From: Chthoniobacterales bacterium
Lineage (GTDB): Bacteria; Verrucomicrobiota; Verrucomicrobiia; Chthoniobacterales; Chthoniobacteraceae
Reading direction: 5' to 3'
Assembly: GCA_038207335.1 (NCBI GenBank)
Contig: JBBQZX010000002.1
Location: 1 to 64,000, forward strand
Length of the DNA: 64,000 nt
Shown here one piece after another: positions 736 through 26,726 of the stretch. The first letter of the stretch is position 1; every line of letters starts with the position of its first letter. The notes under the pieces were generated by a model, which had not been told where the DNA came from, did no database searches, and was given only the letters and a program-made list of their open reading frames with translations. Position numbers and translations under genes: made by a program.

Positions 736-2906
736 TCACTTTTTCGGCACACCGATATCGATGCGCGTGATGTTGTCGTCGCCCGCGCCGTGAACGGTGA
801 TGATCACGCCTTCCTTGATCTTGGGCAAAACCGTCGCCGGGTTCCCTGCAAACTCAAATGCTCCGCCATCGATGCTTTCGTAAACGGGCACATCATCGGC
901 AAACTTGTTCATGTGAAGCTGATTGCCGTATTTTTTGGTGTAGGCTGGGCCGAGGTCTTTGCCGAGCATCAGCAGCCGCTCATTCTTGAACGAGATGAAG
1001 GTGCCGGTGGTGCTGCCTTTTCGCGCACCGACACGGACGAGCGCCTTGTTCCCGCCGACGATGATCCACGTTCCAGCTTCCACCTTGCTCAAGACTTCAG
1101 CGGTGCCTGCAGAGATGTAGGAGTTGGAGGCATTGTCCCAGCTCACGACTGGCGTTTTCTCTGCAATGTTATTCCAGACCAATCCGCCGTAGTTGCCCTT
1201 GAGCGTCAGCGTGCCGTCCTTGAACGACACGAATTTGCCGTATCCGCCCTTCTCATTCTGGCGGGCCTTGTCCGGTGCTGCGGTGGTCTCCGATGCCTTG
1301 CCCGCCGGCGGCCCATTCTTCACGCCGATTTCGATGCGCGTGAAGTTTCCATCGCCCGGCCCGAAGTGAACGGTGACCAGCGTCCCTTCCTGGATCTTCG
1401 GCAAAGCGGCGGAGGGCGTGCCCGCCCGCACATAGTCACCGCCATCAATGCTTTCAAAGACCGGGAGTTCCTCGGCAAACTTTTGGAACTTAAGCTGGTT
1501 GCCGTATTTCTTGGTGAAGCTGTTGGAGTGAGATCTTTTCCCAGCAGCAGCATCTGGTCGTCTTTGAAAGACACGAAGGTGCCGGTGACGCTGCCATTTT
1601 TCCCGCCGACATAAATTTTCTCCCGGCGTCCATTTTCCATCGCGGGGACGCCGATCCATGTCCCTCGCTCCACTTTATTCATGCTCTCCACGGTGCCAGA
1701 CGGCAGGTTCGCATTTGCGGCATCGTTCCAAAGAACGACCGCCGTGCTCGCGGGAATGTCATGCCAGACCAATCCGCCGGACTTGCCTTTGAGCGTCAGC
1801 GTGCCGTCTTTGAATGACACGAACGCGCCTCCTCCGGCCTTGTTCTTCTGGTCGGTGCTCTCCAGTGCCGGAGCCTCTTTCGGCTGCTCGGCTTTGACCT
1901 CTTGCGCACGCGTTGCACCCACCAGCGTGAGCGCGGCAATCATGAATGCGGCAGCCAGGCCCCACGCGGGATGTGTTCGGCGATGAGTGGCGATGGCGCG
2001 AATGCGCGAGCGCATCCCGGCGCGCTCGAAGATGCCGACGAAGGCGAGGCCAAGCGCGGAGTGCGAAACGGAGTTTTGCAGCTTCAGCAACGCATGGCCG
2101 TAGTCGGCACGGCGGTCTTCCGCATCGGCACCGAGCACCTGCGCATCGCACGCCGTTTCGCGGTCCGCCCTCATGCGGGCAAAGGCCAGCCAGAGCAGCG
2201 GATTGAACCAATGCAGCGCCTGAAGCACGCACAGCAGCCAGTTCAACGGCAGGTCGTGGCGTTTGAGGTGCGTGAGTTCGTGCAGCAAGACCATGCGTGC
2301 CTCACCAGCGGAAAATCCCTTTGGAAAACTCGCCGGAAGCAGCAGCACCGGACGCAGCAGACCCGCCACCGCCGGGCTGTCCACTGCTGCGGACACAATC
2401 ACGCGCGGCAAACGTTTCACGCCGAGTTGCTGCGCGGCCCGCGCGACCGACTCTTCGATTTCCGCGCTTGTCACCACCGCATCACGCGCGATCCGGCGCA
2501 GGCTCCGCCGATACCCGACGCCACCGACGACCAGCACACCACAAGCCCCGAGCAACCACGCCGCGAAAACGATTTGCCACCCGCCCGTCCGCCACGATGC
2601 CGGCTCTGCTACCGCCGTGATGTCGGCAAACGCTTCCTGCTCCACCGCGGACTGTGCCTCGGCGGACGATGCGACCGCTTGAACGATGAGCGGCTTTGAA
2701 AGAAAACCATTCTCCGCGCTGAAGCGGCTCGCAGGCAGCACCGGCACGAGGAGCACCAGAACCACCGGCAGCCACAGTGCATGACGCCACCGTGCGGGCA
2801 GCCAGCGACTGAATGCGAGTTGCAGCCCCAGCACCGCGAGTGCGAGCACGGATGCGCGCAAGCTCGCGGACAGGAGCCATGGGATGAAAGAATCGAGGGT
2901 GTTCAT
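736..2906 (-). pseudogene. BlaR1/MecR1-type M56 metallopeptidase with two tandem C-terminal extracytoplasmic repeats, frameshifted at ~1522-1532
   Basis: ORF 1320-2906 has TM helices, SPAVAGLLRP, HELTHLKRHD (HExxH), ALHWFNP and ETACD. The repeat motif GKDL....TKKYGNQL is broken across frames and continues in ORF 736-1659. Confidence 0.8.
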
Positions 2907-2924
2907 AAGGTTGTCGTGGAGGGT

Positions 2925-3308
2925 TCAGGATTGGTTCTTGAGAGATTTATCGAGCATCTTTTTCAACTCGCGCACCTCTGCCGGCGTGAGCTGCGCGTTT
3001 TGCGCGAAGTGGACGAGCAGCGGCTTCGACGCCCCGCGGAAAATGCGCTGCATGAAGGACTCGCTCTCCGCGCCCACACACGCCTCGCGCTTCACCGCAG
3101 GTGAGAAGACACGTGTGCCGCTGGCATTCTCGCCCGTCTTCAGCGCGCCTTTGTACACCAGTCGCGTCAGTAGCGTGCGGACCGTGTTCTCCGCCCAGTT
3201 CATGGTGGGGCGCAGGGTTTTGGTAATCTCCGAAGCAGTCTGTGGCGCGCCCTCCCAGATCGCCTCCATCACTACCCATTCAGATTCGGAAATGTCAGGC
3301 GGTTGCAT
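2925..3308 (-). CDS. BlaI/MecI/CopY family transcriptional repressor
   Basis: ISESEWVVMEAIW...WAENTVRTLLTRLVYKG winged helix; immediately upstream of the M56 gene. Confidence 0.93.
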   Translation of the reverse strand: MQPPDISESEWVVMEAIWEGAPQTASEITKTLRPTMNWAENTVRTLLTRLVYKGALKTGENASGTRVFSPAVKREACVGAESESFMQRIFRGASKPLLVHFAQNAQLTPAEVRELKKMLDKSLKNQS

Positions 3309-3437: not shown

Positions 3438-4104
3438 TTACTTCCAGCCAGCTCGTTGGAGAGCGCGTGTCAAAAGGAACTCTGCGCGGCGCTGCATCTT
3501 CTTTCCCTGGATGTTGATGGCCGACTGGATGCGGCGGTCATAGCTCTCCACGTTGGTCACGTATTTCACCGCGTTGGTGAGAATGATGCGGAAGAGGCTG
3601 AACGTGTTGAGCACCGCCGCCGAACTGCGCTTGGAGCCATGACGCGCGACCCACGCAGGCAGCTTCACGCCGAGCTTCTGTGCGCCCGCGTTCCAGCCGG
3701 CGGCGAGTTCGCCGACCCGCTTGAGCGAATCGCGTTTGAGTGCGCGCAGCGCCTAGGCATCCACTGGATACGGGCTCTTGAGACTGCGCGGATTGATGCG
3801 ACCGGAGTGCGGATCGCGCAGGTGTTTGTGGATCGCCACCGGGTCGCCGAGCGTCACGCCTTTGCGCCGCGCTGCTGCGACCATGACGCGGGCAAGGTCA
3901 GCGATGATGGCACCTTCGCCCGCCTTCTTCGCCGCGCTGCCACGCTTGCCTTTCGATGCCGGCGGCGTGATCGCGACGACCTCTTTCACGAAGCCGCGCG
4001 CGGCTTCCTCGGCAAGCTCGCGCCGAGACTTCTTCACATGCGGCGCGAGCGCTTTGATGCCGCGCTGGATCGGTTTTGAGATCAAAACGAACTCGTGTGT
4101 TCAT
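3438..4104 (-). pseudogene. Degraded phage tail-region gene (basic, possibly HK97 gp10/minor-capsid-like)
   Basis: ATG 4104 (MNTRVRFDLK), frameshift in AAAA at ~4075-4078, then PIQRGIK...VVAITPP, an in-frame TAG at 3753-3755, then ...GELAAGWNAGAQKLGVKLPAWVARHGS to TAA 3438. Lies inside the tail gene string. Confidence 0.55.
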
Positions 4105-4311
4105 CGGGTCGCCAGTTCGTCAGCAGGGCTTCAAGCTGAGTGGTCGCGGGCGGTGCGACCGGCACCGTCCACACGTCATGCGCCCGCAGCGCGCAGTGCT
4201 GGTATTGCAGGAGCCGCGCGAGCGGCAGCTCCCAGAAGATGAAGTGTTCCGACCAGCCCGTTTCTCACGCCAGTGTGAAGACGAAGCTCGCCGTCCACAC
4301 CGGCTCGATCA
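4082..4311 (-). pseudogene. -1 frame extension (gpGT/GpE'-like) of the tail assembly chaperone, interrupted by TGA at 4265-4267
   Basis: -1 frame after CCCAAAC reads LIEPVWTASFVFTLA*ETGWSEHFIFWELPLARLLQYQ... with no own start codon; the GW...I..LPL pattern resembles GpE-like T segments. Confidence 0.6.
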
Positions 4312-4752
4312 GTTTGGGGGAGGCTGCGCCTCTTTTTTACCGCCATTTGGCCGGCTGATAACTTCGATCTGCGCGGCCTCGATGGCGGTGAGGTTGTTCT
4401 CGAGTTGCTGCATCGCCGTGAACATCGCAGTCACCGGAAGTTCCAACTCGAAGGGCAGCAGATACTCGTCCTCGAATGCCTGGCGGTTTTCGCGTGCGAG
4501 CTTCACCGCTTTCTTCACCACGTCGAGCGGCTGCGATTGGATGAAAAGGAACGTCGTGAGCTGGCGCTGCTTGTCATCGGCGGAGAGCGCTTCGACCTGC
4601 TCCTTGTCGCCGCCCACGACCATCGTGAGGCCGAGCGCCCGGCAGATCGTGAGTGTGCCCGCCGAGAATGGCCGCAGAGTGATGCCGCCTGCTTCGGGCG
4701 CGGGCGTGATGAACGTGTCGATGTTGGTCTGAGTCCGTTCGTCAGTGTTCAT
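4309..4752 (-). CDS. Phage tail assembly chaperone (gpG-like), 147 aa
   Basis: MNTDERTQ...GITLRPFSAG...QPPPN*; ends in the slippery heptamer C CCA AAC directly before TGA; downstream of a tube-like gene. Confidence 0.65.
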   Translation of the reverse strand: MNTDERTQTNIDTFITPAPEAGGITLRPFSAGTLTICRALGLTMVVGGDKEQVEALSADDKQRQLTTFLFIQSQPLDVVKKAVKLARENRQAFEDEYLLPFELELPVTAMFTAMQQLENNLTAIEAAQIEVISRPNGGKKEAQPPPN

Positions 4753-5191
4753 TTTTCGAGAGCGGTGAGGAGTTTCTGTCGGCGTTCTGGCGTCGCATCG
4801 AAGGGAACGAGCACGAACCGTTTGCCTTTGCGGATCAGCGCGACGGGAGCGAGTCGCCCAATCTCCGCTGCGAGCAAGCCCGCGTTGCGGAAAGCCGTCG
4901 CGATATAGGCGAACGGATGCTCGTTGTTCTGAGTGGCCCACACCGGATCGTGCCATGCTTCGATAAGCTTCCGGGCGTCGTGCTGGCCGCAAATGCTCTT
5001 CGCCTTGAGCGTCCACGTCACGAGCCGTCGCTCCGTGTTCTCGACCAGTTCGCGGGTTTCAAGATACGGGCAATCGTCATCGAGCGGATGCCGATGGCGG
5101 TGAGCGCGGCCACGAGCCGCAGGAGATTGAGCGCGTTGGCTTCGGTTTTCACCTCGGCGCGCAGGATGCAGAGTTGGTCGCCTTTTTTCAT
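4749..5191 (-). pseudogene. Uncharacterised prophage gene, frameshifted at ~5085
   Basis: ATG 5191 MKKGDQLCIL...AALTAIGI / frameshift / LDDDCPYLETRELV...VTWTLK...EHPFAYI...; the stop overlaps the chaperone ATG (ATGA). Confidence 0.55.
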
Positions 5192-5194
5192 AAA

Positions 5195-5527
5195 TCAGTT
5201 CACCGCCTCCGCGGTTGGGTAGTGCTTGAAGCTGTATTCCCAGCCGTCGAAGTCCTCGTTGTTCTCGCTCTGCCTCACGTTGGTGATGACGGTCACTCCG
5301 CCATTTGGAAGCCCGCTCACGCCCGGATCGCCGACACCCGGCACCACCGCGAGCGCGCCGTGGCCTTTCACACTGCCCTCCGTCATTTTGCGATACGGCT
5401 TCACGCGGGCGATCTCGCCATCGCTGCCGGGTAGTTCCTTGACCTGCACGCTGTCGTCGGTTTCCACCGAATCAATGAGCGTACCGGTGTGGCGGCTGAT
5501 GCCGAATTTTACGTCGTTGGCGGGCAT
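5195..5527 (-). CDS. Putative phage major tail (tube) protein, 110 aa
   Basis: Short beta-rich protein (VKFGI, VITNVRQSENNEDFDGWEYSFKHYP) located between a terminator-like fragment and the chaperone genes; call rests mainly on synteny. Confidence 0.5.
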   Translation of the reverse strand: MPANDVKFGISRHTGTLIDSVETDDSVQVKELPGSDGEIARVKPYRKMTEGSVKGHGALAVVPGVGDPGVSGLPNGGVTVITNVRQSENNEDFDGWEYSFKHYPTAEAVN

Positions 5528-5549
5528 GACATCGGATCGCTGTCAACGC

Positions 5550-5705
5550 TCAGACCGGGCCGAAGCCGAACCGATACTTCAGCTTCGTGGCGAAACGAGC
5601 CTCGCCCGCCGTAGGTTCTGTGCCGAGTGGGGCGTAGCCATAGATGTGAAGCCTCCCGGTGGCGTTGAGCGCGGCGATGACGACCGCACGACTCGCCAGA
5701 GTAGC
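5550..5705 (-). pseudogene. 3' fragment of an upstream phage tail completion/terminator-like gene
   Basis: ...VIAALNATGRLHIYGYAPLGTEPTAGEARFATKLKYRFGFGPV*; its 5' part is replaced by opposite-strand host gene sequence. Confidence 0.4.
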
Positions 5706-6986
5706 TCGCACTATCTCCGCTCGCTCAGCGGCGGCGAGGTTTATCGCGGGAAGAATCTGCCGGAGCTGACGGGCGCGTATGTCTTCGGCGACTTCGGCAC
5801 GGGCCGCGTGTGGGCGGCGAAACACGACGGCACAAAGCTCGAATGGACGCGCGAGTTGCTCGACACGCCGCTCGCGATCACGCACGTCAGCGCCGACGCC
5901 GCGGGCGAGCTGCTCATCGCGGATTACGGCAGCCCGGTTTACGGCGCGGGCGTGAGCGGCGGCATTTATCGCCTCGAGCGCGCGCCTGCGCTGGCGACTG
6001 CGCCGCCCGAGTTTCCGCGCCTGCTCAGCGAGACGGGGCTTTTTTCCGACATGGAAAAACTCGCGCCGCTCCCCGGCGTGCTTCGCTACGAAATCAACGC
6101 GCCCGGCTGGCACGACGGCGCGACCTCCGAGTATCACCTCGCGCTGCCTGGCGACGGCACGCTCGAATTCCGCCCCGCGAAAAGCTGGCAGGCTCCGAAC
6201 GGCACCGTGCTCGCGCAGACGCTCACGCTCGGCGGCAAGCGCATCGAGACGCGCGTGCTGGTGAAGGAGCAGAACGATTGCGCCGCCTACATCTACGTCT
6301 GGAACGCCGCGCAGACCGACGCCGCGCTCGCCGAGAAATCCGGCGCGGACATCGAACTCGCCGACGCGCAGCCGTGGCGCGTCCCGAGCCGAGCCGAATG
6401 CATGATGTGCCATTCGCGGCAGGCGAATTTTTCCCTCACCCTCCACGAAGCGCAGCTCAACCGCGGCGACCAACTCGCGCGCTGGGAAAGCTTTGGCCTG
6501 CTCCGCGCGGACGCTGTCGCTTTTGAGCGCGAACGCAACTTCACCGAAAAACTTCCGCGTCCCGCAGAATCCGCCCCAGACCAGCGCAAGCCCGCGCTAT
6601 CATCGCTTCTTCCGCGCGATCCGGATCGTCTGAAAAAGTTCGCCGCAACCGATGACCTGCACGCCAGCCTCGACGCGCGCGCCCGCGCTTATCTCGGCGT
6701 GAACTGCGCCCACTGCCACACGCTCTACGGCGGCGGCAACAGCGCGATGGACTTCGACTGGCTGCTCCCGCCCGACGAAATGCACGCCCTCGGCGAGCCC
6801 GCGAAGCACGGCGACTTCGGCCTCACCGACGCGCGCGTGATTGCCCCCGGCACCGCCGCGCGCAGCGTCGTCATCCCGCGCGTGAGCATCCGCGGCCCCG
6901 GCCAGATGCCCCCGCTCGGCACCCGCATCGCCGACCCCGACGGCGTGCGCGTTCTCGTCGAGTGGATCGAGTCTCTGCGGAAATAG
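5706..6986 (+). pseudogene. 5'-truncated PQQ/sorbosone sugar dehydrogenase-like beta-propeller + c-type cytochrome protein
   Basis: Begins mid-propeller (RSLSGGEVYRG..LPELTGAYVFGDFGTGRVW), then LSETGLF, CMMCH, NCAHCH and QMPPLG. No signal peptide or N-terminal blades; the upstream part of ORF 5226-6986 is antisense phage sequence. Confidence 0.75.
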
Positions 6987-7119
6987 GGGGGACGAGCGAC
7001 GAGTCGGGATACTTATCGCTTTCGCGAATCGCTCGACGGCGCGATCCACGTCGGCACGGCGACATACAATCACAACGCCTTCCGCGTGGAGTTCGATCCG
7101 CGCACCGGGAAGCAGCGAA
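6954..7119 (+). repeat. Left copy of duplicated island target (matches 12367-12402 and 12566-12693)
   Basis: 6954-6989 vs 12367-12402: 34/36 identical. 6991-7119 vs 12566-12693: about 12 substitutions and one indel by manual alignment. Confidence 0.92.
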
Positions 7120-7293: not shown

Positions 7294-8430
7294 ATGAAGG
7301 GCATGTTTCGCCGCACACTTTCATCAGCACCCAAGCCGCAATCGGCGCCGGTGCGGTGGCGTGAGGCTGCCACGGGGAGCGAGTGCACTTTGCATCAACT
7401 CTCGCCCTACATCGGTAAGCTAAAGAGTTCGATCGCGGGCGACCTAATCGCGCAGTTCAGCAAAATCGGTGAATTGATCGTCGATCCGTTTTGTGGCGCG
7501 GGCACAGTGCCGCTTGAGGCTGTGCTTAGGGGCAGGCGTGCATTCGGCGCGGATATCAGCCCTTATGCCCGAGTGCTTTCTTCGGCGAAACTACACCCCC
7601 CCACCTCGATTGAAAGGGCGCTCGCGAAGGCAGTGCGTTTGCATGAGGATTCGGGTGAACTACCAGAGCCGGATCTCCGAACCGTGCCACAGTGGGTGCG
7701 GCGATTTTTTCACCAAGAAACCTTGCGTGAGGCACTGAGGCTCGCCGCCGTCTGCCGGAATCCGGGAAACGAGTTCTACTTCGCGTGTTTGTTCGGGATT
7801 TTGCATCATCAGCGCCCGGGGTTTCTGTCATATCCGAGCAGTCATTTGGTGCCGTATTTGAGGAGCAATAAGTTCCCGCGCGAGCGGTTCCCAGAACTCT
7901 ACGAATATCGGCCAGTGTTGCCGCGACTCCTGGCGAAGGTTCGCCGGAGCTTCCGACGCTCACCGGCAAATGCGAAGTGGTCTGCTGCGTTTCGGGAATG
8001 TGCTGTCGAGAACCTGCGTTTCCCGTCGCGCTTCGACGCCTTGATTACCAGCCCGCCATACATGAACGCGCTCGACTACCAGCGCGACAACCGACTGCGG
8101 CTTTGGTTCATCGACCCACGCCTTGTCGATTCTTCGATGGATGAGGCGACGCGAACTCGCGAGTCTTTCGTCTCAGCGATCGAAAGCGTCGCCACGAAAG
8201 CCGAGCGTGGACTGCGCACCTCGGGCCACTGCGTCTTCGTTGTCGGCGAGCAGTCGAAGCGAAAATTCGAGGCGCACCCGGCGCAGAGCGTAATCGACAC
8301 CATGAGCCAGCACGCACCGTCGCTGCGCTTGCAGCAGGTGATCGCCGACTATATTCCCGACGTGCGCCGGACACGGCGCGAGTGCAGGGGTGTAAAGCGA
8401 GAGATGATTCTCGTCTTCAAGCGCCGCTGA
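7294..8430 (+). CDS. DNA amino-methyltransferase, probably N4-cytosine
   Basis: HQLSPYIGKL, SAM-binding motif I DPFCGAGT, catalytic motif IV ITSPPY. Confidence 0.85.
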   Translation: MKGMFRRTLSSAPKPQSAPVRWREAATGSECTLHQLSPYIGKLKSSIAGDLIAQFSKIGELIVDPFCGAGTVPLEAVLRGRRAFGADISPYARVLSSAKLHPPTSIERALAKAVRLHEDSGELPEPDLRTVPQWVRRFFHQETLREALRLAAVCRNPGNEFYFACLFGILHHQRPGFLSYPSSHLVPYLRSNKFPRERFPELYEYRPVLPRLLAKVRRSFRRSPANAKWSAAFRECAVENLRFPSRFDALITSPPYMNALDYQRDNRLRLWFIDPRLVDSSMDEATRTRESFVSAIESVATKAERGLRTSGHCVFVVGEQSKRKFEAHPAQSVIDTMSQHAPSLRLQQVIADYIPDVRRTRRECRGVKREMILVFKRR

Positions 8431-8434
8431 ACCG

Positions 8435-10917
8435 ATGCGAGCCAACCTGCCCGACAAACAGTATTTCAAAGGGAAGCAGGTTCCCGGTCGTGCCGACCTG
8501 CTCATCACCGAGTATGTGAACAGTGGAAATAACGCACACGTCTTCAAGGCAAGGCAGAGAGCTAGCCGGGACGTAGCGTGCAAGATCATCCCGCGCAAAA
8601 ATCTCGCGGGTGGTGGAGACACCGCACTTTGGGAAGATGAGGTCAGGAAAGCTGACGTCTTGGAGAACTCTGTGGTGGTGAAATGCGAAGGGGTCAGCGA
8701 GTGGAAAGACAGTGAGGCTGGGATTGATTGCATCGTCTTGGTCTTTCCCTTCATTGAAGGACGGAATCTGCGCGATACCCTTGCGGACAAAAGCTCGCCA
8801 ATCACGATGGCGTTCATCTCGGTCTGTCTTGAGACATTACTTGAACTCCTCGCCGAGATGAGTGCCCTTGGCATTTCCCACGGCGACCTCCATACGGGAA
8901 ATATCATCGTCGAGCACAAGCGTTTCGCACTCAGGGACTCACCATATGCATTTCGTGTCACTGACTTTGGAGTAGCCGACGTAACGAGCGATCCGGGACC
9001 CCGCGATGACTTTCATCAAGTCGGCGCCGTCCTGCATGAAATGCTCGCCGCCGTGGATTTTCAGGCACCAGGCGCACCAGAGGACAAATACACCTTCCTT
9101 CAGCTGCGCGATTTGTTCATTCGCAGCCTGACAGACGACGATCCGACCCGCAATCGGTTTGCGAGGCAAGCGGAGCTGCTCTTCACCGAGTTGCGATCGC
9201 TGCCTGCAAAGTTCCGCAACTCCCACGGAGGCAAGGTGGAGATGACTTCGCCCTTCGACTTTCTAAGTTGCGAGCAGATCGGGGATGCCGCGTTGCTTGA
9301 GGCTTTGTATTCTCACCTGTTCCTCGGAATCGAAAAAGTCTGCGGACGCAATAATATGGTCCTGACCGGCCCGCGCGGGTGCGGAAAATCGACGGTCTTC
9401 AAGAGTCTGAGTTTGCCGCACCGCGTCAAGGTTACCGATGCGTCACCCGCAGGCGTGAAATTCATCGGAATCTATTACCGATGCGATGATTTGTATTTCG
9501 CATTTCCGAGCTATCGATTGCCTGAGCGTCGTGAAGCGTGGGACATTCCGCTGCATTTCATCACGACCACGTTACTCGCTCTCCTGCTGGAAGCTGTCGG
9601 CGAATGGGCAGAAATTCACTTCCGAGATGAATTCCATCGGATTCAGCCTTCAGTCTGCGAGCGCTTGTGGGAAGCGATCGGATTGCCACCGCCGCAGCAA
9701 CCAGGGGCGTTCAGCTTCGCCGTTCTCACCCGCGAGCTACAGAAGCAGCGCAAGAAAGCGACCGAGCGCCAGAAGGTCGCACACAAGCTTGATCGCGGCC
9801 TTGGATACAATTGCGGAGTTGGCGTTCTCACCAAAGCCTGCGAGGTGATTTCGGAGGGATTCCCCTTCTTGCGGGAGCGACCGATCTACTTCTTTGTCGA
9901 CGACTATTCATCGCCCAAGATTAGCGTCAATTTGCAGCGGAACCTCAACCGTTTACTTACACAACGGACGTCGTTTTGTTTTTTTAAAATCTCAACGGAA
10001 AGCCCGGTATCGTTTGAGCGAGAGGATGTGGACGGCAAGCATTACCCTGAAGGTCGCGAGTTCGAGCTTCTAAATCTCGGCGTCGTGTTTCTGGCAGCGA
10101 GCGACGATGCAAAGCTCAGCTTTGTCGAGGACGTATTTACGCGTCGCTTTGCGAAAGCTACTGACAAGTTCCCCGTCGCGCATTTGGAGGATTTGCTCGG
10201 TAGCAATCGGCAGCAATCACATAACGACCATGCACGGCAGATTCGGGAGAGTGCGTTGGGCGGTGGACCTAAACTTCTGCTCTGGGGCAAAGAGACACTC
10301 TGCGAACTTTGTAGCGGTGACATCCATTATCTCATCGGGTTGGTTCGCGACATGGTGGTGCGCACTGGCGGCACCGCCGAGATTGAGAAGTCCCTCGCAA
10401 CGCCACGCGTTCCCAAGGAAGATCAGAATCGCGAAATTCGAACTGCAGCGGGCGCCTTCCTAAAAAGCCTTACCGGCATCGTGAAGCACGGGGATCGACT
10501 CAAGAGAATTGTCGAAGCCTTCGGAACCGTCGCTTATACCCACCTACTCTATCGGGATGCGCCGAACCAAAAAATGAGCAATTACCGATTCCGAAGCAGG
10601 CGACAAGAATTGAGCCGCTTGAGGAGCCAAAACTCACTCCCGATGCCGAGCGCATATACAACGAACTCCTGCGCTATTCCGTTTTCATCGAAGATGTGCG
10701 GGGCAAGAGCCGCCGAGGGCACGTCGTGGCGCGACTTTACCTGCGTCGCTTGCTGATTCCCCATTTCAGCCTTACTTTCAGCACGCGTGATTCTATCGAA
10801 TTGGAGCCATCCCAAATCGAAGTGCTGCTCACCGATCCCGAAATCTTTTTGAAGGCGAAGCGCTTGAAGGGTGTATCAGACGATGAGCATCCGACCTTCA
10901 ATTTTGAGCCCACTTAA
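8435..10917 (+). CDS. Ser/Thr kinase fused to STAND/ORC-CDC6-like P-loop ATPase with wHTH-like C-terminus; -1 frameshift at A6 10569-10574
   Basis: Kinase motifs SGNNAHVFKA, VACK, HGDLHTGNII, TDFG; Walker A GPRGCGKST; Walker B YFFVDDYS. The protein-like C-terminus NEQLPIPKQATRIEP...YNELLRYSVFIED..GKSRRG...RLYLRRLLIPHF lies in the -1 frame and ends at TAA 10917, 3 nt before the next ATG. Confidence 0.8.
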
Positions 10918-10920
10918 CTT

Positions 10921-11994
10921 ATGAACATCTCGACGCCCGACGAAACTCTGCTCGCGATCTCAAAGCCGTCTTTAGCGGAACTGGGGGATCTCGTGCTTAC
11001 GGAAGGGGACACTCTTGTGCTCAGCGCAGGTTTTGAAGATCGAGCGTCTGCATTCTTAAATACTGCGTTGGCCAGCGGGCGGAGCTTCCGTGTGATCGTG
11101 GTCGATTATCTCCCGCAAAATCCGCAGAATCGAATCGCTGCCGCACTCTCGGCGTGTGCTGAGCATAAAATCACCGTCGACGTCCTCACCTATGATCGAG
11201 AGAACCCGGCCGGCTTCGGGGATGTGCTTAGTACCTCTCTTGGCGATCGGTCTGGACGAACCTTCATCGACATCTCGGGAATGTCGCGCTTGCTCATCGT
11301 GCAGACTTTGGTCGCGCTGCACGAGTCGGATGAGAGCCTGCAACGCACGTTCGTCATCTACACCGAGGCTGCCGAATATCCGCCGACACTCGAAGTTGCC
11401 CAGGAAGCACTGCGCGCGGCGGAAGAGAACCCCGCCGAACCGATCCATTTTCTGGCCTCCGGCGTTTTTGAAGTAACCGTATTGCCGGAACTCTCTGCGG
11501 TTGGCTTCGCTTCCTCGCCAACGCGGCTGATCGTTTTCCCGACGCTTGACCCCGTCCACCTTACTGCGCTGTTGACCGAGCTTCAGCCAGGCCAACTTAC
11601 CGTCATCGAAGGACAGCCGCCGAGCCCAGCTAATCAATGGCGGCCCGGCATCATCGCGCAAATCAATGAACTAGAACGGCTCCAGACGCAAACCGGCGCC
11701 GAACGCGAGATGACCAGCACGCTAGACTACCGCGACACGCTCGACCGCCTACTCCGTCTGTATGCGAAGCACGGCATCCGCGAGCGGATCGTTCTGTCGC
11801 CAACGGGGAGCAAGATGCAATCGGTCGCAGTGGGGTTGTTTCGAGCATGGGTTCGCGATGTGCAGATTGTCTATCCGACCTCCAGCGGTTTCTGCTCCTC
11901 CGAGAGCTACACTGTTGGTGTAGGTCCTATTCGTCTCTTAGCTCTCACCCCATTTTCAAAAGAAGTGAGTGAAGAAATTCGGGCTGTTGCATGA
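10921..11994 (+). CDS. Uncharacterised tandem Rossmann-like (CARF-like) protein, 357 aa
   Basis: Two alpha/beta halves: LVLSAGFEDRA...FIDISGMSR...YTEAAEYPP and LIVFPTLDP...STLDY...VLSPTGSKMQSVA...IVYP. The DIS/SPxGxK strand-loop motifs resemble CARF-fold proteins (fold assignment is inference). Confidence 0.55.
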   Translation: MNISTPDETLLAISKPSLAELGDLVLTEGDTLVLSAGFEDRASAFLNTALASGRSFRVIVVDYLPQNPQNRIAAALSACAEHKITVDVLTYDRENPAGFGDVLSTSLGDRSGRTFIDISGMSRLLIVQTLVALHESDESLQRTFVIYTEAAEYPPTLEVAQEALRAAEENPAEPIHFLASGVFEVTVLPELSAVGFASSPTRLIVFPTLDPVHLTALLTELQPGQLTVIEGQPPSPANQWRPGIIAQINELERLQTQTGAEREMTSTLDYRDTLDRLLRLYAKHGIRERIVLSPTGSKMQSVAVGLFRAWVRDVQIVYPTSSGFCSSESYTVGVGPIRLLALTPFSKEVSEEIRAVA

Positions 11995-12046
11995 CCGCAC
12001 GGCGACCATTTTTTCGATCGGATCGTCGAAGAGCTTGGAAATCGCC

Positions 12047-12235
12047 TCATGTTTCCCGCACGATCTCTGTAGTCCTTTAATCCTCGCGCATGGGGATGAA
12101 GGTGCAGTGGCGGAGCTTTTCGCAATCGGTCCATTCGACGAAGGCGAGCTGGCAGACCAGCTTGGGCTTTAGCCAGCGGCATTCTTTCATCTTCTCGGTG
12201 GTGAGCGCTTCGCCCCATCGGGAGGCTTTTCTGGC
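12047..12235 (-). pseudogene. ligD: 3' remnant of ATP-dependent DNA ligase (LigD-type OB domain)
   Basis: Manual translation KASRWGEALTTEKMKECRWLKPKLVCQLAFVEWTDCEKLRHCTFIPMRED*RTTEIVRET*, matching the W.kP.LV.ev.F.EWT....LRH..F...R.DK motif; TAA at 12077-12079. Confidence 0.8.
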
Positions 12236-12342
12236 GAAGGAGTTAGGTCTTTGCCTTCAACAAAGGGATGACGCGGGCGGCGAGTTTCTGCAGCGCCTTC
12301 ACGCGCCGCCGTGCGTCGGCTCCAGCGGCTGGCCGTCGTGTA

Positions 12343-12402
12343 GTCGATACTGACGGCATGCACCTACTCGTGGAGTGGATCGTGTCTCTGCGGAAATAGG
12401 GG
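12343..12402 (+). repeat. Right copy of the duplicated target (second copy of the last ~18 codons of the 5706-6986 gene)
   Basis: Encodes VDTDGMHLLVEWIVSLRK* versus ADPDGVRVLVEWIESLRK* at the left flank. Confidence 0.9.
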
Positions 12403-12452
12403 CGAAGAAGCGCGGGCGGCGGCGGTAGTTTGCGTGCCGTCCTTTTTACCCG

Positions 12453-14903
12453 ATGAAAAACCTCCACTACTTTCTCGCTGCACTATCTCTGCTCACGACC
12501 GCTGGCATTTGCGCCGAGCCGCCCGCTTACGTGCCGGCGACGGCGTTTCACATCCTGCAGGAGACGACGAGCGATGAGTCGGGATACTTTTCCCTCTCGG
12601 AATCGCTCGATGGCGCGATCCACGTCGGGACGGCGAAATACAATTTCAACGCCTTCCTCGTGGAGTTCGATCCGCGCACGGGAAAGCAGCGAATCGTGCT
12701 CGATACGAACAAGACGTGCGGGCTGACGGCGACGGGCAACGCGGCGCAGGCGAAGATTCATACGCGCAATTTCACCGGGCCGAGCGGGCGCGTGTATGTC
12801 GGCTCGAAGCAGGGCTATTTCAAAAAGGAAGACCCGTCGGAGTATCCAGGCGGCTACGTGATGACTTACGATCCGCGCACTGGCCGGACGGAGAATCTTG
12901 GGATGCCGATGGCAAAGGAGGGCGTGATCGACGTCGTCGCGGATGAAGCGCGCGGGCGGCTCTATGCGGTGACGTGCGAGGAACAGCACTGGATGCTCGG
13001 CACACTCGCCGGCGCGCCGTGGCGCGAGCTAGGGCCGATGCTCACGCCTTACGCGGCGACGCTCGTGGATGCGCGTGGCGTGGCGAGCGCGTTGACGAAG
13101 GACTTCCAGCTCGCGCAATTTGATCCGGCGACGGAGCGCGTGACGATGCGGCCCATTTCGCTCGACGGAAAAACGTGGGCGCGCGCGGGCACCAGCTCGA
13201 TCCCGATCTGGCAGCTCGACCCGGACGGGCGGCACGCGTGGCTCATCCTGATGAATGATCCGACGCTGCTGCTCATCGACCTGCAATCGCCCGGCGATCA
13301 AGTCGCCGCCGAGAACCGCGGGCTGATGCTCGAGGGGAAGAATCCCGACTGCCGCAGCGCACTGACCATTCATCCCGACGGCAAGATTTACGCTTTCGTG
13401 AAAGTGGACAACACCACCGGCTTCGGCACCGGCTACCTCCACCACCTCGTCCGCTACGATCCCGCGGCGAAGCGGCACGAAGACCTCGGCGTGCTGAAAG
13501 TCAGCAACCCGGATTTCTTCGACTGGTCGCCCGGTGCCGACGGCAAGCCGAAGCCGTGGACGCATGGTTTTCACAAACTCCCGGACGGCACGCTCACGCC
13601 GCTCCACGCGCACATGGCGCTGCTCGCCGCGCGCGACGGCACGCTCTACGCCACGATTCTCTATCCCTACACGCTGCTGAAAATCGACGGCTTCAAATTG
13701 CCCGCGCCCGCGCCGACCGCCGCCGCCAAATATCTCGACGCGCTCGCCACCAAACTCACCGAAGCCGAAGCGCGGCTGCCGGAGATTACGAAACTCGCCG
13801 AGCAACTCGCGGAGCGGCATTTGCGCGGCGGCATGATCGGCTTTCCGTGGATCGGCTCGACGCTCGAACAGGAATTGATCGGCCGCAGCGGCGGGCTGAT
13901 GCACATCGGCTTCGAACGCCCGTGGACAAAGGATCGGACGGCGGAGGAAAAGGCGAACGACGCGATCATTTTCGCGTGGGACGACGCGCCGAAAGCGGCG
14001 GACTTGAAGCGCGTGCAGGACGCGAAGGCGAAGGGTTTGTTCGTCCTCGGATTCGGTGCGCTGAAGTCGCCGCTGCTCGCGGAGCATGCTGCCGCCTGCG
14101 ATGCGTGGATCGACTCCGGCGCGAGCGAGGATGACCGCGCCGTCGATCTCGGCGGCGGACGGCGCGCGGGGAAGACGAACTCTTTCACAAACGCGGTGAA
14201 CGGCTGGCTCTTCACCGGGGAATTCGTCGCCGCGCTCACGCGTCGCGGCAAAATGCCGATCATGCTGAAGAGCGGAATGACGATTGATGGCGTGGCTTGG
14301 AACGCTCGCTACGCAGGCGCGCAATTTCACGACGACGTGACCGTGCCGCCGGTCGCGCCGGGCGAGCTGGGCCGCCGTTATCTCGAGCGCATCCGCTACA
14401 TGGTCGCGCGCCTGCGCAGCACCGAACTTTCCAAGCTGCAAAAGATGGCGGCGAACATTGATGCCGAGCTGCGCGCCGGAAAAAAGACCGTCGTCGCATC
14501 AATGGGCCACATGGGAATGAATTTCATCGGTCGCTTCGACGATGCGCTTTGGGCGGTGAATGACGAAGTGAGCGATGGCCTCGAATCGCAGATGAAGAGC
14601 TACGAAAAAGCACCCGACGGCGCGCTCGTCCTGCGCCTCGGCTACGTCGGCCTACACCGCGATCTGTACGCGCTTTTCCAGCGCAAGCAGCAGCGCGTGA
14701 TGCTCATTGCGGCGGAGAATCCGCGCGCGGAGTTCGCCATCCCCGCGGGCTACGAACTGCGCGCCGATCCGGGCTTCGCCTTCGGCGACGCGTGCGTTTA
14801 CATCCCCGGCTATCCCATTCCGATTCTGCCGCCGAGCGGCGTCATGCAGGTCGCGGCTTACGAGGCGATCAACGTCGAGGTGCAGCAGCGGCACGCGCCG
14901 TAA
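12453..14903 (+). CDS. Secreted protein: N-terminal beta-propeller + C-terminal tandem SIS-like alpha/beta domains
   Basis: Signal peptide; blade repeats (YDPRTG, FDPAT, YDPAAK); PAPAPTAA linker; ELIGRSGGLM and SMGH...PPSGVMQ segments resembling sugar-isomerase folds. Confidence 0.6.
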   Translation: MKNLHYFLAALSLLTTAGICAEPPAYVPATAFHILQETTSDESGYFSLSESLDGAIHVGTAKYNFNAFLVEFDPRTGKQRIVLDTNKTCGLTATGNAAQAKIHTRNFTGPSGRVYVGSKQGYFKKEDPSEYPGGYVMTYDPRTGRTENLGMPMAKEGVIDVVADEARGRLYAVTCEEQHWMLGTLAGAPWRELGPMLTPYAATLVDARGVASALTKDFQLAQFDPATERVTMRPISLDGKTWARAGTSSIPIWQLDPDGRHAWLILMNDPTLLLIDLQSPGDQVAAENRGLMLEGKNPDCRSALTIHPDGKIYAFVKVDNTTGFGTGYLHHLVRYDPAAKRHEDLGVLKVSNPDFFDWSPGADGKPKPWTHGFHKLPDGTLTPLHAHMALLAARDGTLYATILYPYTLLKIDGFKLPAPAPTAAAKYLDALATKLTEAEARLPEITKLAEQLAERHLRGGMIGFPWIGSTLEQELIGRSGGLMHIGFERPWTKDRTAEEKANDAIIFAWDDAPKAADLKRVQDAKAKGLFVLGFGALKSPLLAEHAAACDAWIDSGASEDDRAVDLGGGRRAGKTNSFTNAVNGWLFTGEFVAALTRRGKMPIMLKSGMTIDGVAWNARYAGAQFHDDVTVPPVAPGELGRRYLERIRYMVARLRSTELSKLQKMAANIDAELRAGKKTVVASMGHMGMNFIGRFDDALWAVNDEVSDGLESQMKSYEKAPDGALVLRLGYVGLHRDLYALFQRKQQRVMLIAAENPRAEFAIPAGYELRADPGFAFGDACVYIPGYPIPILPPSGVMQVAAYEAINVEVQQRHAP

Positions 14904-25074: not shown

Positions 25075-25584
25075 CTACAGCCTCACTCGTCCGTGCTGCT
25101 CGCCCTCTTCCAGCTCCGGCGTCGTGCCCGCCGCGTAGGCTTTCACCGTTTTGAAGAGGTATTTGATCTTGTTGAAGCCTTCGTTATCCCAAAATTCCCC
25201 TTCCTCCGGCTGCACTGCGATCAGTTCGATGTCCGGGTCCTCTTTTCCATTTGGGAACCAGACGCGATACGGCTCCTGCCACAGCTCCGCGATTTTCGCC
25301 CGATCGCGGATAAGCTCCGCATTTCCACTGATTGAGAGATACGCGCTGCGATCATTTTGGCAGACTAGGTGCACACGTGTGTCGGACTCGATCTCGTGCG
25401 CCTTCGAAGTCGCGCCGCTCGTGAAGAACCATACCCGGCAATCTTCCTCCACTTGCGCCACTGCCATCGGTCGCGCCCGCAGCCTGCCGCCGCCGGTGTG
25501 CGTCACGAGCATCGCCGTGTGGAATTGCTTCAGGAGTTTGTGAAAATGCTCGCGCTGGTCGGTCGTGGAGATGGGTTCGCTCAT
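25075..25584 (-). CDS. General stress protein 26 / pyridoxamine-5'-phosphate oxidase-like FMN-binding protein
   Basis: AMLVT...RARPM, VWFFT, YLSISG.A, WFPNGKEDP, EFWD; ATG overlaps the topoisomerase stop. Confidence 0.88.
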   Translation of the reverse strand: MSEPISTTDQREHFHKLLKQFHTAMLVTHTGGGRLRARPMAVAQVEEDCRVWFFTSGATSKAHEIESDTRVHLVCQNDRSAYLSISGNAELIRDRAKIAELWQEPYRVWFPNGKEDPDIELIAVQPEEGEFWDNEGFNKIKYLFKTVKAYAAGTTPELEEGEQHGRVRL

Positions 25585-26726
25585 GCCTTTGAATCGCCGC
25601 ACGCGCGCCGCCCGGACGGCTTCCGGGGCTTCACGAATTCGCTCGCCTTCCGTCCGCCACCTTCCTCGCCCAATCGCTCGCGGAGCATCATCAGCACCGC
25701 GGCTTCCTCCGGCTTGAGTTGCGCCAGCGAGCGCTCGACCTGACGCCCGGCGGCGGCATGCATCGTGGCGATCGTCTGCTTTTGAAAATAGCAATCCAGT
25801 ACCGCCGGATGCACGTAGCATTTGCGGCACACCGCGGGCGTGTTCCCGAGCGTCTTCGCGACGGCCTCCACCGCGCGTGTAATGTTCCGCTTCGCCTCAC
25901 GCGTCGTGGCAAATTCCTCGAACTCCCGCAACGCAATCGCAGCCAGGACGGTCCCAGCCCATGTGCGAAAATCTTTCGCCGAAAATTCCTCACCCGAAAT
26001 CTCGCGCAGATAGGAATTCACGTCGTCGGAAGTCACGTCGCGCGCCTTTCCCTCCGCATCAAGGTAGGTGAAAATCTCCTGCCCCGGAAGCTCCTGGCAC
26101 CGCTTCACGATCGCCGCCAGCTTCGCATCCCGGAGGTCGATCTCGTGCTTTTTGCCGCTCTTCCCGACAAAGGAAAAGTGCACCTTGCCGCCACGCACTC
26201 GAGCGTGGCGGTTCCGGATTGTCGTCAGCCCGTAGCTCCCATTCGCCTCGGCATACTCTTCGTTTCCAACCCGGATCAGAGTCGTCTCCAGCAGCCGAAC
26301 CACTGCCGCGAGCACCTTCTCCCGCGGCATTCCGCGACGCCGCAAATCCCTCGCAACATGCTTTCGGAGCCGCGGCAGCGACCGCGCGAATTTCATCATC
26401 CGACTGTATTTCGAAACGTCCCGCACCTCCCGCCAGCGCGCATGGTATCGGTATTGTTTTCGTCCCCGCGCATCACGCCCCACCGCTTGGATGTGCCCGT
26501 TTTCCCTCGCGCAAATCCAAACGTGCGTCCACGCGGGCGGGATTCCGAGCGCCTTGATCCGCCGAAGGGTTTCCTCTTCGCGGAGAATGCCCCCTTTCAC
26601 ATTGCGATACCGAAACGAGCCGCGCCAAGCCTCTCGCGTAAGACCCGGCTCGGCATCGTTAACGTAGCGCAGCCCCGCCGCCACGGCTGCGTCGGACATA
26701 AGCGGCGCATGCTGGCCACCAGACAT
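25581..26726 (-). CDS. Bacterial DNA topoisomerase IB
   Basis: IPPAW, GRDARGRKQYRYH, IRVGNEEY, FVGKSGK, KDFRTWAGT, LGNTPAVCRKCY (catalytic Tyr). Confidence 0.95.
   Translation of the reverse strand: MSGGQHAPLMSDAAVAAGLRYVNDAEPGLTREAWRGSFRYRNVKGGILREEETLRRIKALGIPPAWTHVWICARENGHIQAVGRDARGRKQYRYHARWREVRDVSKYSRMMKFARSLPRLRKHVARDLRRRGMPREKVLAAVVRLLETTLIRVGNEEYAEANGSYGLTTIRNRHARVRGGKVHFSFVGKSGKKHEIDLRDAKLAAIVKRCQELPGQEIFTYLDAEGKARDVTSDDVNSYLREISGEEFSAKDFRTWAGTVLAAIALREFEEFATTREAKRNITRAVEAVAKTLGNTPAVCRKCYVHPAVLDCYFQKQTIATMHAAAGRQVERSLAQLKPEEAAVLMMLRERLGEEGGGRKASEFVKPRKPSGRRACGDSKA

Follow-up and report, generated by a model that had tools for sequence, protein, structure and literature searches.

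A widespread methyltransferase, kinase-ATPase and tandem CARF cassette of probable defence function, with a frameshifted copy in a Chthoniobacterales genome

Introduction

In BREX type 2/Pgl, a DNA methyltransferase (MTase), a kinase and ORC/Cdc6-type ATPases are encoded in one locus (PMC12839542). A smaller family, in which a Zn ribbon, a kinase, an AAA+ ATPase with an Arg in the P-loop and a CARF domain are fused in one chain, was proposed by Makarova et al. 2014 to act in signal transduction, and the sections describing this family give no role to an MTase (PMC4012209). Here we analyze a three-gene cassette of an MTase, a kinase-ATPase and a tandem CARF protein, located at positions 7294 to 11994 of the first 64,000 nucleotides (forward strand; hereafter the window) of contig JBBQZX010000002.1 from a Chthoniobacterales bacterium (assembly GCA_038207335.1). 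Judged from its sequence, it is a real, widespread and already catalogued cassette of probable defence function, of which the window holds a frameshifted copy.

In the tables of its supplement, and without comment in the passages concerned, the 2014 study records for Methanocorpusculum labreanum a 'new_CARF_CARF' protein together with an MTase and a kinase of 847 aa, a set that we equate with the cassette by domain labels and lengths rather than by sequence; a split form related to it is given for B. gladioli (PMC4012209). The same supplement places fused kinase-ATPase-CARF proteins near C5-cytosine methylases in Chitinophaga pinensis (there also with Vsr) and Gordonia, which hints that the connection with cytosine marks may be wider. 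A paper naming or testing the trio was not found in our literature search.

Metis and PUA-Cal-HAD systems are works-like analogues of the mechanism proposed below. In these systems, a methyl mark becomes an alarm on genome degradation, with an abortive output (10.1101/2025.11.05.686725; 10.64898/2026.01.15.699771); a putative type III Metis has its own methylase, and cytosine versions have been predicted (10.1101/2025.11.05.686725; PUA-Cal-HAD, 10.64898/2026.01.15.699771). The sensors set out in these reports are PUA-like or membrane pockets for m6dAMP, and the effectors are NAD/dNTP hydrolases or a membrane protein, plus a HAD phosphatase. None of these was found in the cassette, and calcineurin, PUA and HAD are not among the matches listed for its proteins in Pfam, NCBIfam and PADLOC.

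A conserved unit of three genes

The cassette comprises three open reading frames (ORFs) on the plus strand, at 7294-8430, 8435-10756 and 10921-11994. An earlier note on this DNA, made from the sequence alone, had described three co-oriented genes with gaps of 4 and 3 nt and a series of catalytic motifs, all of which are present: DPFCGAGT and TSPPY in the MTase, VACK, HGDLHTGN and DFG in the kinase, and GPRGCGKST and FVDDYS in the ATPase. The 4-nt gap lies between 8430 and 8435, and the 3-nt gap is counted from the shifted-frame stop at 10917 to 10921.

A CARF-led scan of GTDB returned 118 relatives. We retained the best 80 and set aside 14 of them with less than 3.7 kb upstream, leaving 66 informative loci. 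The order MTase, kinase-ATPase, CARF is kept in 62 of these, the departures being L048, L054, L068 and L069, and the MTase is retained in 63. Wherever the kinase start was located (28 loci), the spacing between MTase and kinase falls between -11 and +2 nt. From an MTase-led scan of metagenomes the best 80 of 538 were taken. Of the 77 loci with 300 nt or more downstream, 72 have the kinase after the MTase; of the 47 with 3 kb or more, 44 have the whole trio. No fourth conserved gene emerged; the two largest neighbour clusters, restriction-modification (RM) methylases and helicases, reached 9 of 80 loci each. By these counts the trio is a conserved, coupled unit travelling together.

According to record titles, the hosts comprise Verrucomicrobia, Proteobacteria, Acidobacteria, Nitrospirota, Myxococcota, Spirochaetia, Clostridia and an archaeon. 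Within a single group the cassette is rare: in the host phylum 3 of 401 genomes have it, and in another order 2 of 401. Two viral contigs, L161 and L162, bear divergent full cassettes. The CARF clade of the window was not detected in phages by a single-sequence scan, and searches of annotated phages and of E. coli genomes gave no match. The MTase of L090 stands ahead of a single 1224-aa kinase-ATPase-CARF fusion. L097, and also L096, hold the MTase head to head with a divergent kinase-ATPase-CARF module on the opposite strand, another sign that parts of the cassette recombine.

By its profile matches, given below, the cassette belongs to the catalogued CARF6 / kinase-AAA-CARF family. Shared features are a kinase followed by an AAA+ ATPase with the P-loop Arg, a CARF6-type tandem CARF and a position away from CRISPR. 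In contrast to the fused chain with a Zn ribbon described in 2014, the CARF protein is separate here, a Zn ribbon is lacking and an MTase is nearly constant. The architecture, which the earlier note could not match to a named system, is therefore covered by the PADLOC models CARF6--CARF_STK_AAA and CARF6--CARF_CARF, the 2014 family and the M. labreanum trio; what holds of that statement is that no paper naming or testing the trio came to light.

The third protein is a tandem CARF without effector domain

ORF3 (10921-11994, plus strand) matched CARF6 models of PADLOC (PDLC01917, E 5e-15), with no significant match in Pfam or NCBIfam. Its AlphaFold (AF2) model has a pLDDT of 91, and the best fold match (VIA) was Can1 (6sce; Z 15.0, rmsd 3.8, 239 residues aligned), followed by other CARF proteins. 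In the model, ORF3 is made up of two CARF halves throughout, a pseudo-dimer with no effector domain and no room for a nuclease. This agrees with the tandem CARF-like protein lacking a nuclease that had been read from the letters. ORF3 as a restriction nuclease was ruled out by the fold, both halves being CARF.

Among the type III CRISPR effectors Can1, Can2 and Card1, Can1 likewise has two CARF domains per chain that form one pocket. Unlike these effectors, the cassette CARF carries no nuclease or other effector domain and has no cas genes beside it, and Cas10 palm2 was not found in its host. A basic pocket residue is present in each CARF half, in DxSGMSR123 and PTGSK298; R123 is found in 75 of 77 CARF proteins (K in the other two) and K298 in all 77. 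Such a conserved basic pocket suits a phosphate-rich ligand, and an oligonucleotide would therefore fit better than a lone base.

The kinase-ATPase and its frameshift

ORF2 starts with a Hanks-type Ser/Thr kinase domain with intact catalytic motifs (8435-9230, plus strand; Pfam Pkinase, E 2.5e-10), followed by an AAA+ ATPase domain of the ORC/Cdc6-like type (9231-10568, plus strand; PF24389, E 5e-34). The top PADLOC match of the protein was CARF6--CARF_STK_AAA (E 7e-23). Key kinase and ATPase motif residues are kept in 59-62 of 62 aligned kinase-ATPases, the P-loop Arg (GPRGCGK) is present in all 62, and Walker B reads DDYS. The ATPase had been taken for a STAND protein in the earlier note, an assignment that gives way to the ORC-CDC6-like match: unlike Avs/NLR-like STAND sensors, it is a PF24389 protein, and no TPR-type sensor repeats follow the PF24389 region. 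Neither a conserved Cys cluster ahead of the kinase nor a Zn ribbon was seen.

The intact homologue L008 (837 aa) was modelled with a pLDDT of 88.6, and its comparison with S. aureus PknB (Z 19.0, rmsd 3.4, 224 aligned residues) identifies a Hanks kinase. Fold searches with this model returned kinases only, so that the ATPase and C-terminal assignments stand at sequence level. The C-terminal domain of about 115 aa is alpha/beta and Arg-rich, and by its secondary-structure pattern it may be winged-helix-like. Across 56 loci, conservation within the protein is highest in these C-terminal ~114 residues (mean identity 0.59) and the kinase domain, the predicted effector, is the most variable part of the cassette (0.43); the ATPase domain, the CARF protein and the MTase reach 0.52, 0.44 and 0.53, respectively.

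In comparison with the intact locus L081, whose DNA is 88% identical to the window, the window carries 2 extra nt in an A-run at 10569-10570. The frame is lost after about residue 713, 60 unrelated residues are appended up to the stop at 10756, and the C-terminal ~114 residues lie out of frame at 10571-10917 (plus strand). Relatives with 83-91% identity are uninterrupted proteins of 826-827 aa. With its kinase-ATPase frameshifted by this insertion, the window copy of the cassette is very likely inactive.

Two other causes of the shift were considered. A Logan contig of run X1 shows 0 differences and 0 gaps to window 8392-13000; since this assembly has the same letters, a sequencing or assembly slip is less likely, with the reservation that X1 is possibly the source sample and its agreement then not independent. 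Programmed frameshifting was rejected, as inspection by eye showed no canonical slippery heptamer and the frame is unbroken in close relatives.

Breakage of the kinase-ATPase recurs in other genomes. Of 62 complete loci, 5 have a broken kinase-ATPase and 0 a broken MTase, which is what a costly effector predicts; the CARF protein, being intact by choice of query, was left out of this comparison.

The methyltransferase is shared with other modules

The MTase gene (7294-8430, plus strand) is intact; comparison with L081 indicates that its true start is probably the ATG at 7303. ORF1 matched Pfam N6_N4_Mtase (E 1.5e-9) and PADLOC MTase_II (E 1e-23), and N4-cytosine MTases are among its best PDB sequence matches, the similarity being confined to the S-adenosylmethionine (SAM)-binding motif. 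In this 378-aa protein FxGxG comes ahead of SPPY, an order from which we take it to be of the alpha class, and SPPY is invariant across 55 aligned MTases. By motif, the enzyme appears to be of the amino type and N4-methylcytosine (m4C)-like. In L071 (2348-6448), the MTase reading frame extends to 1366 aa, with 1000 N-terminal aa that match nothing in Pfam, PADLOC or PHROG.

The same MTase family, 40-48% identical to that of the window, is found directly before a ParA and a SIR2 gene in L152, L153, L164-166 and L173. This arrangement occurs on prophage contigs (L164-166) and in a Salmonella plasmid record. In L163, L167 and L178 the family stands directly before DUF262 and HEPN genes, the HEPN of L178 being incomplete and matched by eye to L163. 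These alternative partners correspond to ParA-sirtuin pairs (10.64898/2026.10.19.760177) and PD-T4-2/Menshen-like DUF262 modules. Whatever the partner type, the MTases have near-identical catalytic motifs and a near-identical HHQRPGFLS segment, and the presumed recognition segment is near-invariant irrespective of partner genes.

An MTase tree (FastTree, midpoint root) was built from all alternative-partner and divergent loci and 35 of 111 close ones, omitting 12 duplicates and 14 loci that were short or unassigned. On it, ParA-SIR2 partners occur at two positions, and divergent kinase-ATPase clades are dispersed between close ones. From the sequences, what is new here is a methylase that is shared with ParA-SIR2 and DUF262-HEPN, two unrelated modules of the suicide type, its partners being swapped on the tree. 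No description of either cassette was found in the literature searched, and the words 'methylase' and 'methyltransferase' do not occur in the main text of the ParA preprint (10.64898/2026.10.19.760177). A lone 665-aa protein, P0367, fuses the same SIR2 type to the MTase and may result from the loss of a stop codon. An N-terminal extension of P0372 was tried as a HEPN domain and rejected.

Near-identical motifs together with interleaved partners fit a diffusible link better than a co-evolved interface. A methylase swapped among unrelated modules is linked to them more easily by a diffusible product, and this is the sole argument for the MTase as the source of a signal, a role that we assign to it tentatively, as a real possibility short of a probable one. 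The earlier note had read the enzyme as marking self; we keep self-marking as one reading, and the swapping of partners fits a signal-supplying role at least as well.

A self/non-self reading on the DNA itself, as in BREX or type I/III RM, would have the MTase mark self and join the DNA-binding ATPase in detecting unmarked sites on incoming DNA, with the kinase taking the place of the nuclease and the CARF protein acting as a second lock. The near-invariant presumed recognition segment, the highly conserved, Arg-rich C-terminal domain of the kinase-ATPase and the SIR2-MTase fusion P0367 all speak in its favor, and the ORC/Cdc6-like, ParA and DUF262 NTPases of the three partner modules all belong to DNA-binding families. 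ORC-CDC6 has also been proposed as a DNA sensor in the ParA preprint (10.64898/2026.10.19.760177). However, one MTase would then have to dock on three unrelated modules and, in addition, on kinase-ATPase clades only 22-32% identical to that of the window; the partner modules exist without the MTase, and P0367 is a single sequence. This reading, which comes close to that of the earlier note, we consider rather unlikely.

Genomic neighbourhoods point to defence

On either side of the cassette, a maximum of two neighbouring ORFs with a length of 150 aa or more, the nearest ones, were scanned (119 upstream and an additional query, together with 127 of the 133 downstream, trimmed to 700 aa), and defence neighbours were counted by hand, leaving out plain toxin-antitoxin genes and unassigned helicases. 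An RM, BREX-like, CBASS, CRISPR or other defence-type gene was counted beside 31 of the 73 loci with a scanned neighbour; as a rough control, drawn from a single region of one genome, 0 of the 39 other ORFs of the window are of a defence type. Conserved gene order and defence neighbourhoods, which had been anticipated for homologues of a defence system, are thus both seen (62/66 and 31/73 loci). We regard it as highly probable that the cassette is a defence system.

Outside defence, the cassette might be a mobile module for stress or DNA-damage signaling with an orphan methylase. Kinases and orphan MTases are often regulatory, and a DNA ligase remnant lies in the islet of the window; but the spread is patchy, the neighbourhoods are of a defence kind, prophages and plasmids carry the cassette, SIR2 and HEPN modules are exchanged with it and the kinase gene has been lost repeatedly, all of which speaks for defence, and we hold a non-defence role to be highly improbable.

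Unlike BREX type 2/Pgl, the cassette has no PglZ, BrxC/D or helicase, its kinase lacks NERD and the tandem pseudo-kinase, and its MTase is a 378-aa SPPY enzyme and not PglX. With type II RM it shares a DNA MTase with intact motifs, but the cognate restriction endonuclease is absent, ORF3 being a CARF protein and no nuclease being conserved among the neighbours. The absence of a BREX core and of a restriction endonuclease, noticed before, is upheld: BREX/Pgl core genes are not among the matches listed for the cassette proteins or the 39 window ORFs. Real PglW- or BrxC/D-like genes adjoin the cassette in L006 and L043.

In several loci the cassette is placed within or next to methylation machinery: between type III mod and res in five (L042, L045, L049, L052 and L055), directly before DUF1156 genes in four (L040, L047, L050 and L079) and after type I RM genes in three (L025, L033 and L068). 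Such nesting would suit a guard that watches this machinery, has its own MTase for a bait and responds once methylation is inhibited by SAM lyases or DNA mimics of phages, for which PrrC and PARIS are precedents. Against this, 42 of the 73 loci and the window locus itself have no recognised defence neighbour, unrelated cargo commonly nests in RM operons, and the presence of the CARF protein would go unexplained. A guard function is therefore quite unlikely.

An intact-looking, co-oriented ThyX gene adjoins the cassette in L031 (4194-5177), L039 (826-2259), L044 (1353-2279) and L174 (10973-11896). The four hosts are unrelated and the ThyX proteins 58-60% identical to that of L031; a fifth ThyX lies about 1 kb off in L046 (11057-11989), and L068 has two ThyA-like genes downstream of the cassette. 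The ThyX-linked loci are possibly a subtype tied to pyrimidine nucleotide pools.

A proposed ligand-gated kinase

We know of no ligand source for CARF domains outside CRISPR. Cas10 palm2 and SMODS were both searched for in the host genome (94.7% complete), and neither was found. Among 25 cassette genomes, Cas10 palm2 scored over the cut-off in 9, SMODS in 10, either in 15 and neither in 10. With neither family found in the host or over the cut-off in 10 of 25 genomes, no known cyclase seems to be required.

The kinase-ATPase and CARF protein could, on the other hand, form a back-up effector that hears the messengers of other systems (cyclic oligoadenylates, CBASS nucleotides or cyclic-phosphate RNA), with the MTase as a co-travelling stabiliser or anchor. 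The nearest folds to ORF3 are CARF domains that bind cyclic oligoadenylates, 15 of the 25 genomes have Cas10 palm2 or SMODS, SMODS adjoins the cassette in L044 and cas1 is near in L057. RtcR-type CARFs, moreover, are described in the CoCoNuT paper as binding RNA fragments. This is countered by the host, where neither family was found, by the 10 genomes with neither over the cut-off, and by the tight coupling of the MTase, at -11 to +2 nt in 28/28 loci and kept in 63/66. We judge a listening role improbable.

A kinase output gated by a ligand is, in our assessment, the probable mode of action. As a fuller account we favour a Metis-like abortive mechanism, which we hold to be a serious possibility without calling it probable; past gene content and fold, we infer every step. 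The MTase would set a fixed mark, probably m4C, on host DNA. Infection would yield a nucleotide ligand that would bind between the two CARF halves; its likeliest form is a marked mono- or oligonucleotide released as the phage breaks down the chromosome. The liganded CARF protein would turn on the ATPase, which would oligomerise and activate the kinase. Phosphorylation of host targets would then stop growth and phage replication. More broadly, the MTase family might serve as a plug-in alarm source, its cytosine mark, when released or exposed on infection, being read by at least three unrelated sensor-effector modules, namely the tandem CARF with its kinase-ATPase, ParA-SIR2 and DUF262-HEPN, an idea that we regard as doubtful.

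Several points weigh against the Metis-like mechanism. Cas10 palm2 or SMODS is present in most of the cassette genomes (15/25), and the two models miss other cyclases. More distant ParA-SIR2 and DUF262-HEPN pairs occur without the MTase, and so does a kinase-ATPase with a CARF protein in R. pickettii and L054. There are just 9 loci with alternative partners, some of them related, and neither ParA-SIR2 nor DUF262-HEPN has a recognised ligand-sensor domain. The pseudo-symmetric pocket with two basic residues is closer to binders of cyclic oligoadenylate such as Can1 than to a mononucleotide site, and a released methyl-nucleotide alone would not require so invariant a presumed recognition segment. 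The neighbour count was made by hand against a control from one region of one genome.

A plug-in alarm source of this kind, if true, would amount to a cytosine-based, self-contained Metis-like immunity, with a CARF domain reading a DNA-derived ligand and a protein kinase as CARF-gated effector. If the methylase supplies the signal, this would confirm the predicted extension of genome-degradation sensing to cytosine and to systems with their own methylase, and would show that the output of a CARF domain can be a protein kinase. Independent read-outs of the same signal (NAD loss and RNA cleavage) would come from the ParA-SIR2 and DUF262-HEPN versions. As the cassette is compact and widespread, with many intact copies, the ligand question is directly testable; the window copy, being frameshifted, matters less.

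The islet and its surroundings

In the window, the cassette lies within an islet bounded by a duplicated gene junction. The left copy (6939-7119) recurs as the right copy (12352-12693) at 86-90% identity, and GC3 is 0.61-0.69 in the islet versus 0.81 in the two flanking genes, so that the repeat-bounded islet with atypical codon use seen earlier is confirmed. The left copy consists of the true 3' end of the upstream gene and, in a decayed form with an internal deletion, a copy of the downstream gene's 5' part, the right copy of the decayed 3' end of the upstream gene and the true start of the downstream gene. In the congener G832 the two flanking genes are adjacent and the islet is absent, representing an empty site. 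The kinase-ATPase was found in none of 30 related genomes searched, the host being the single carrier (1/31). The sequence evidence identifies the islet as a foreign insertion of a horizontally mobile cassette.

The layout, with a whole gene A, a scrap of B, the cassette, a scrap of A and a whole B, matches the residue to be expected from the integration of a circle by a single crossover, which may be how the islet arose. Neither an integrase nor a tRNA was found at the insertion site. Within the islet, a remnant of the C-terminal domain of an ATP-dependent DNA ligase is present at 12080-12229 on the minus strand (PF04679, E 8e-9).

To the left of the islet, at 3750-5530 (minus strand) and 5226-6986 (plus strand), several short ORFs gave no Pfam or PHROG matches. 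A cytochrome c-like gene beside them seems to be without the N-terminal part present in G832, which suggests an older rearrangement just left of the islet. A BlaI/BlaR1 (M56)-like pair is encoded at 736-3308 on the minus strand; its M56 ORF stops at 1320 and a repeat-containing ORF runs on in another frame to 736, possibly owing to a second frameshift. Further away, a bacterial type IB topoisomerase is encoded at 25584-26726 on the minus strand.

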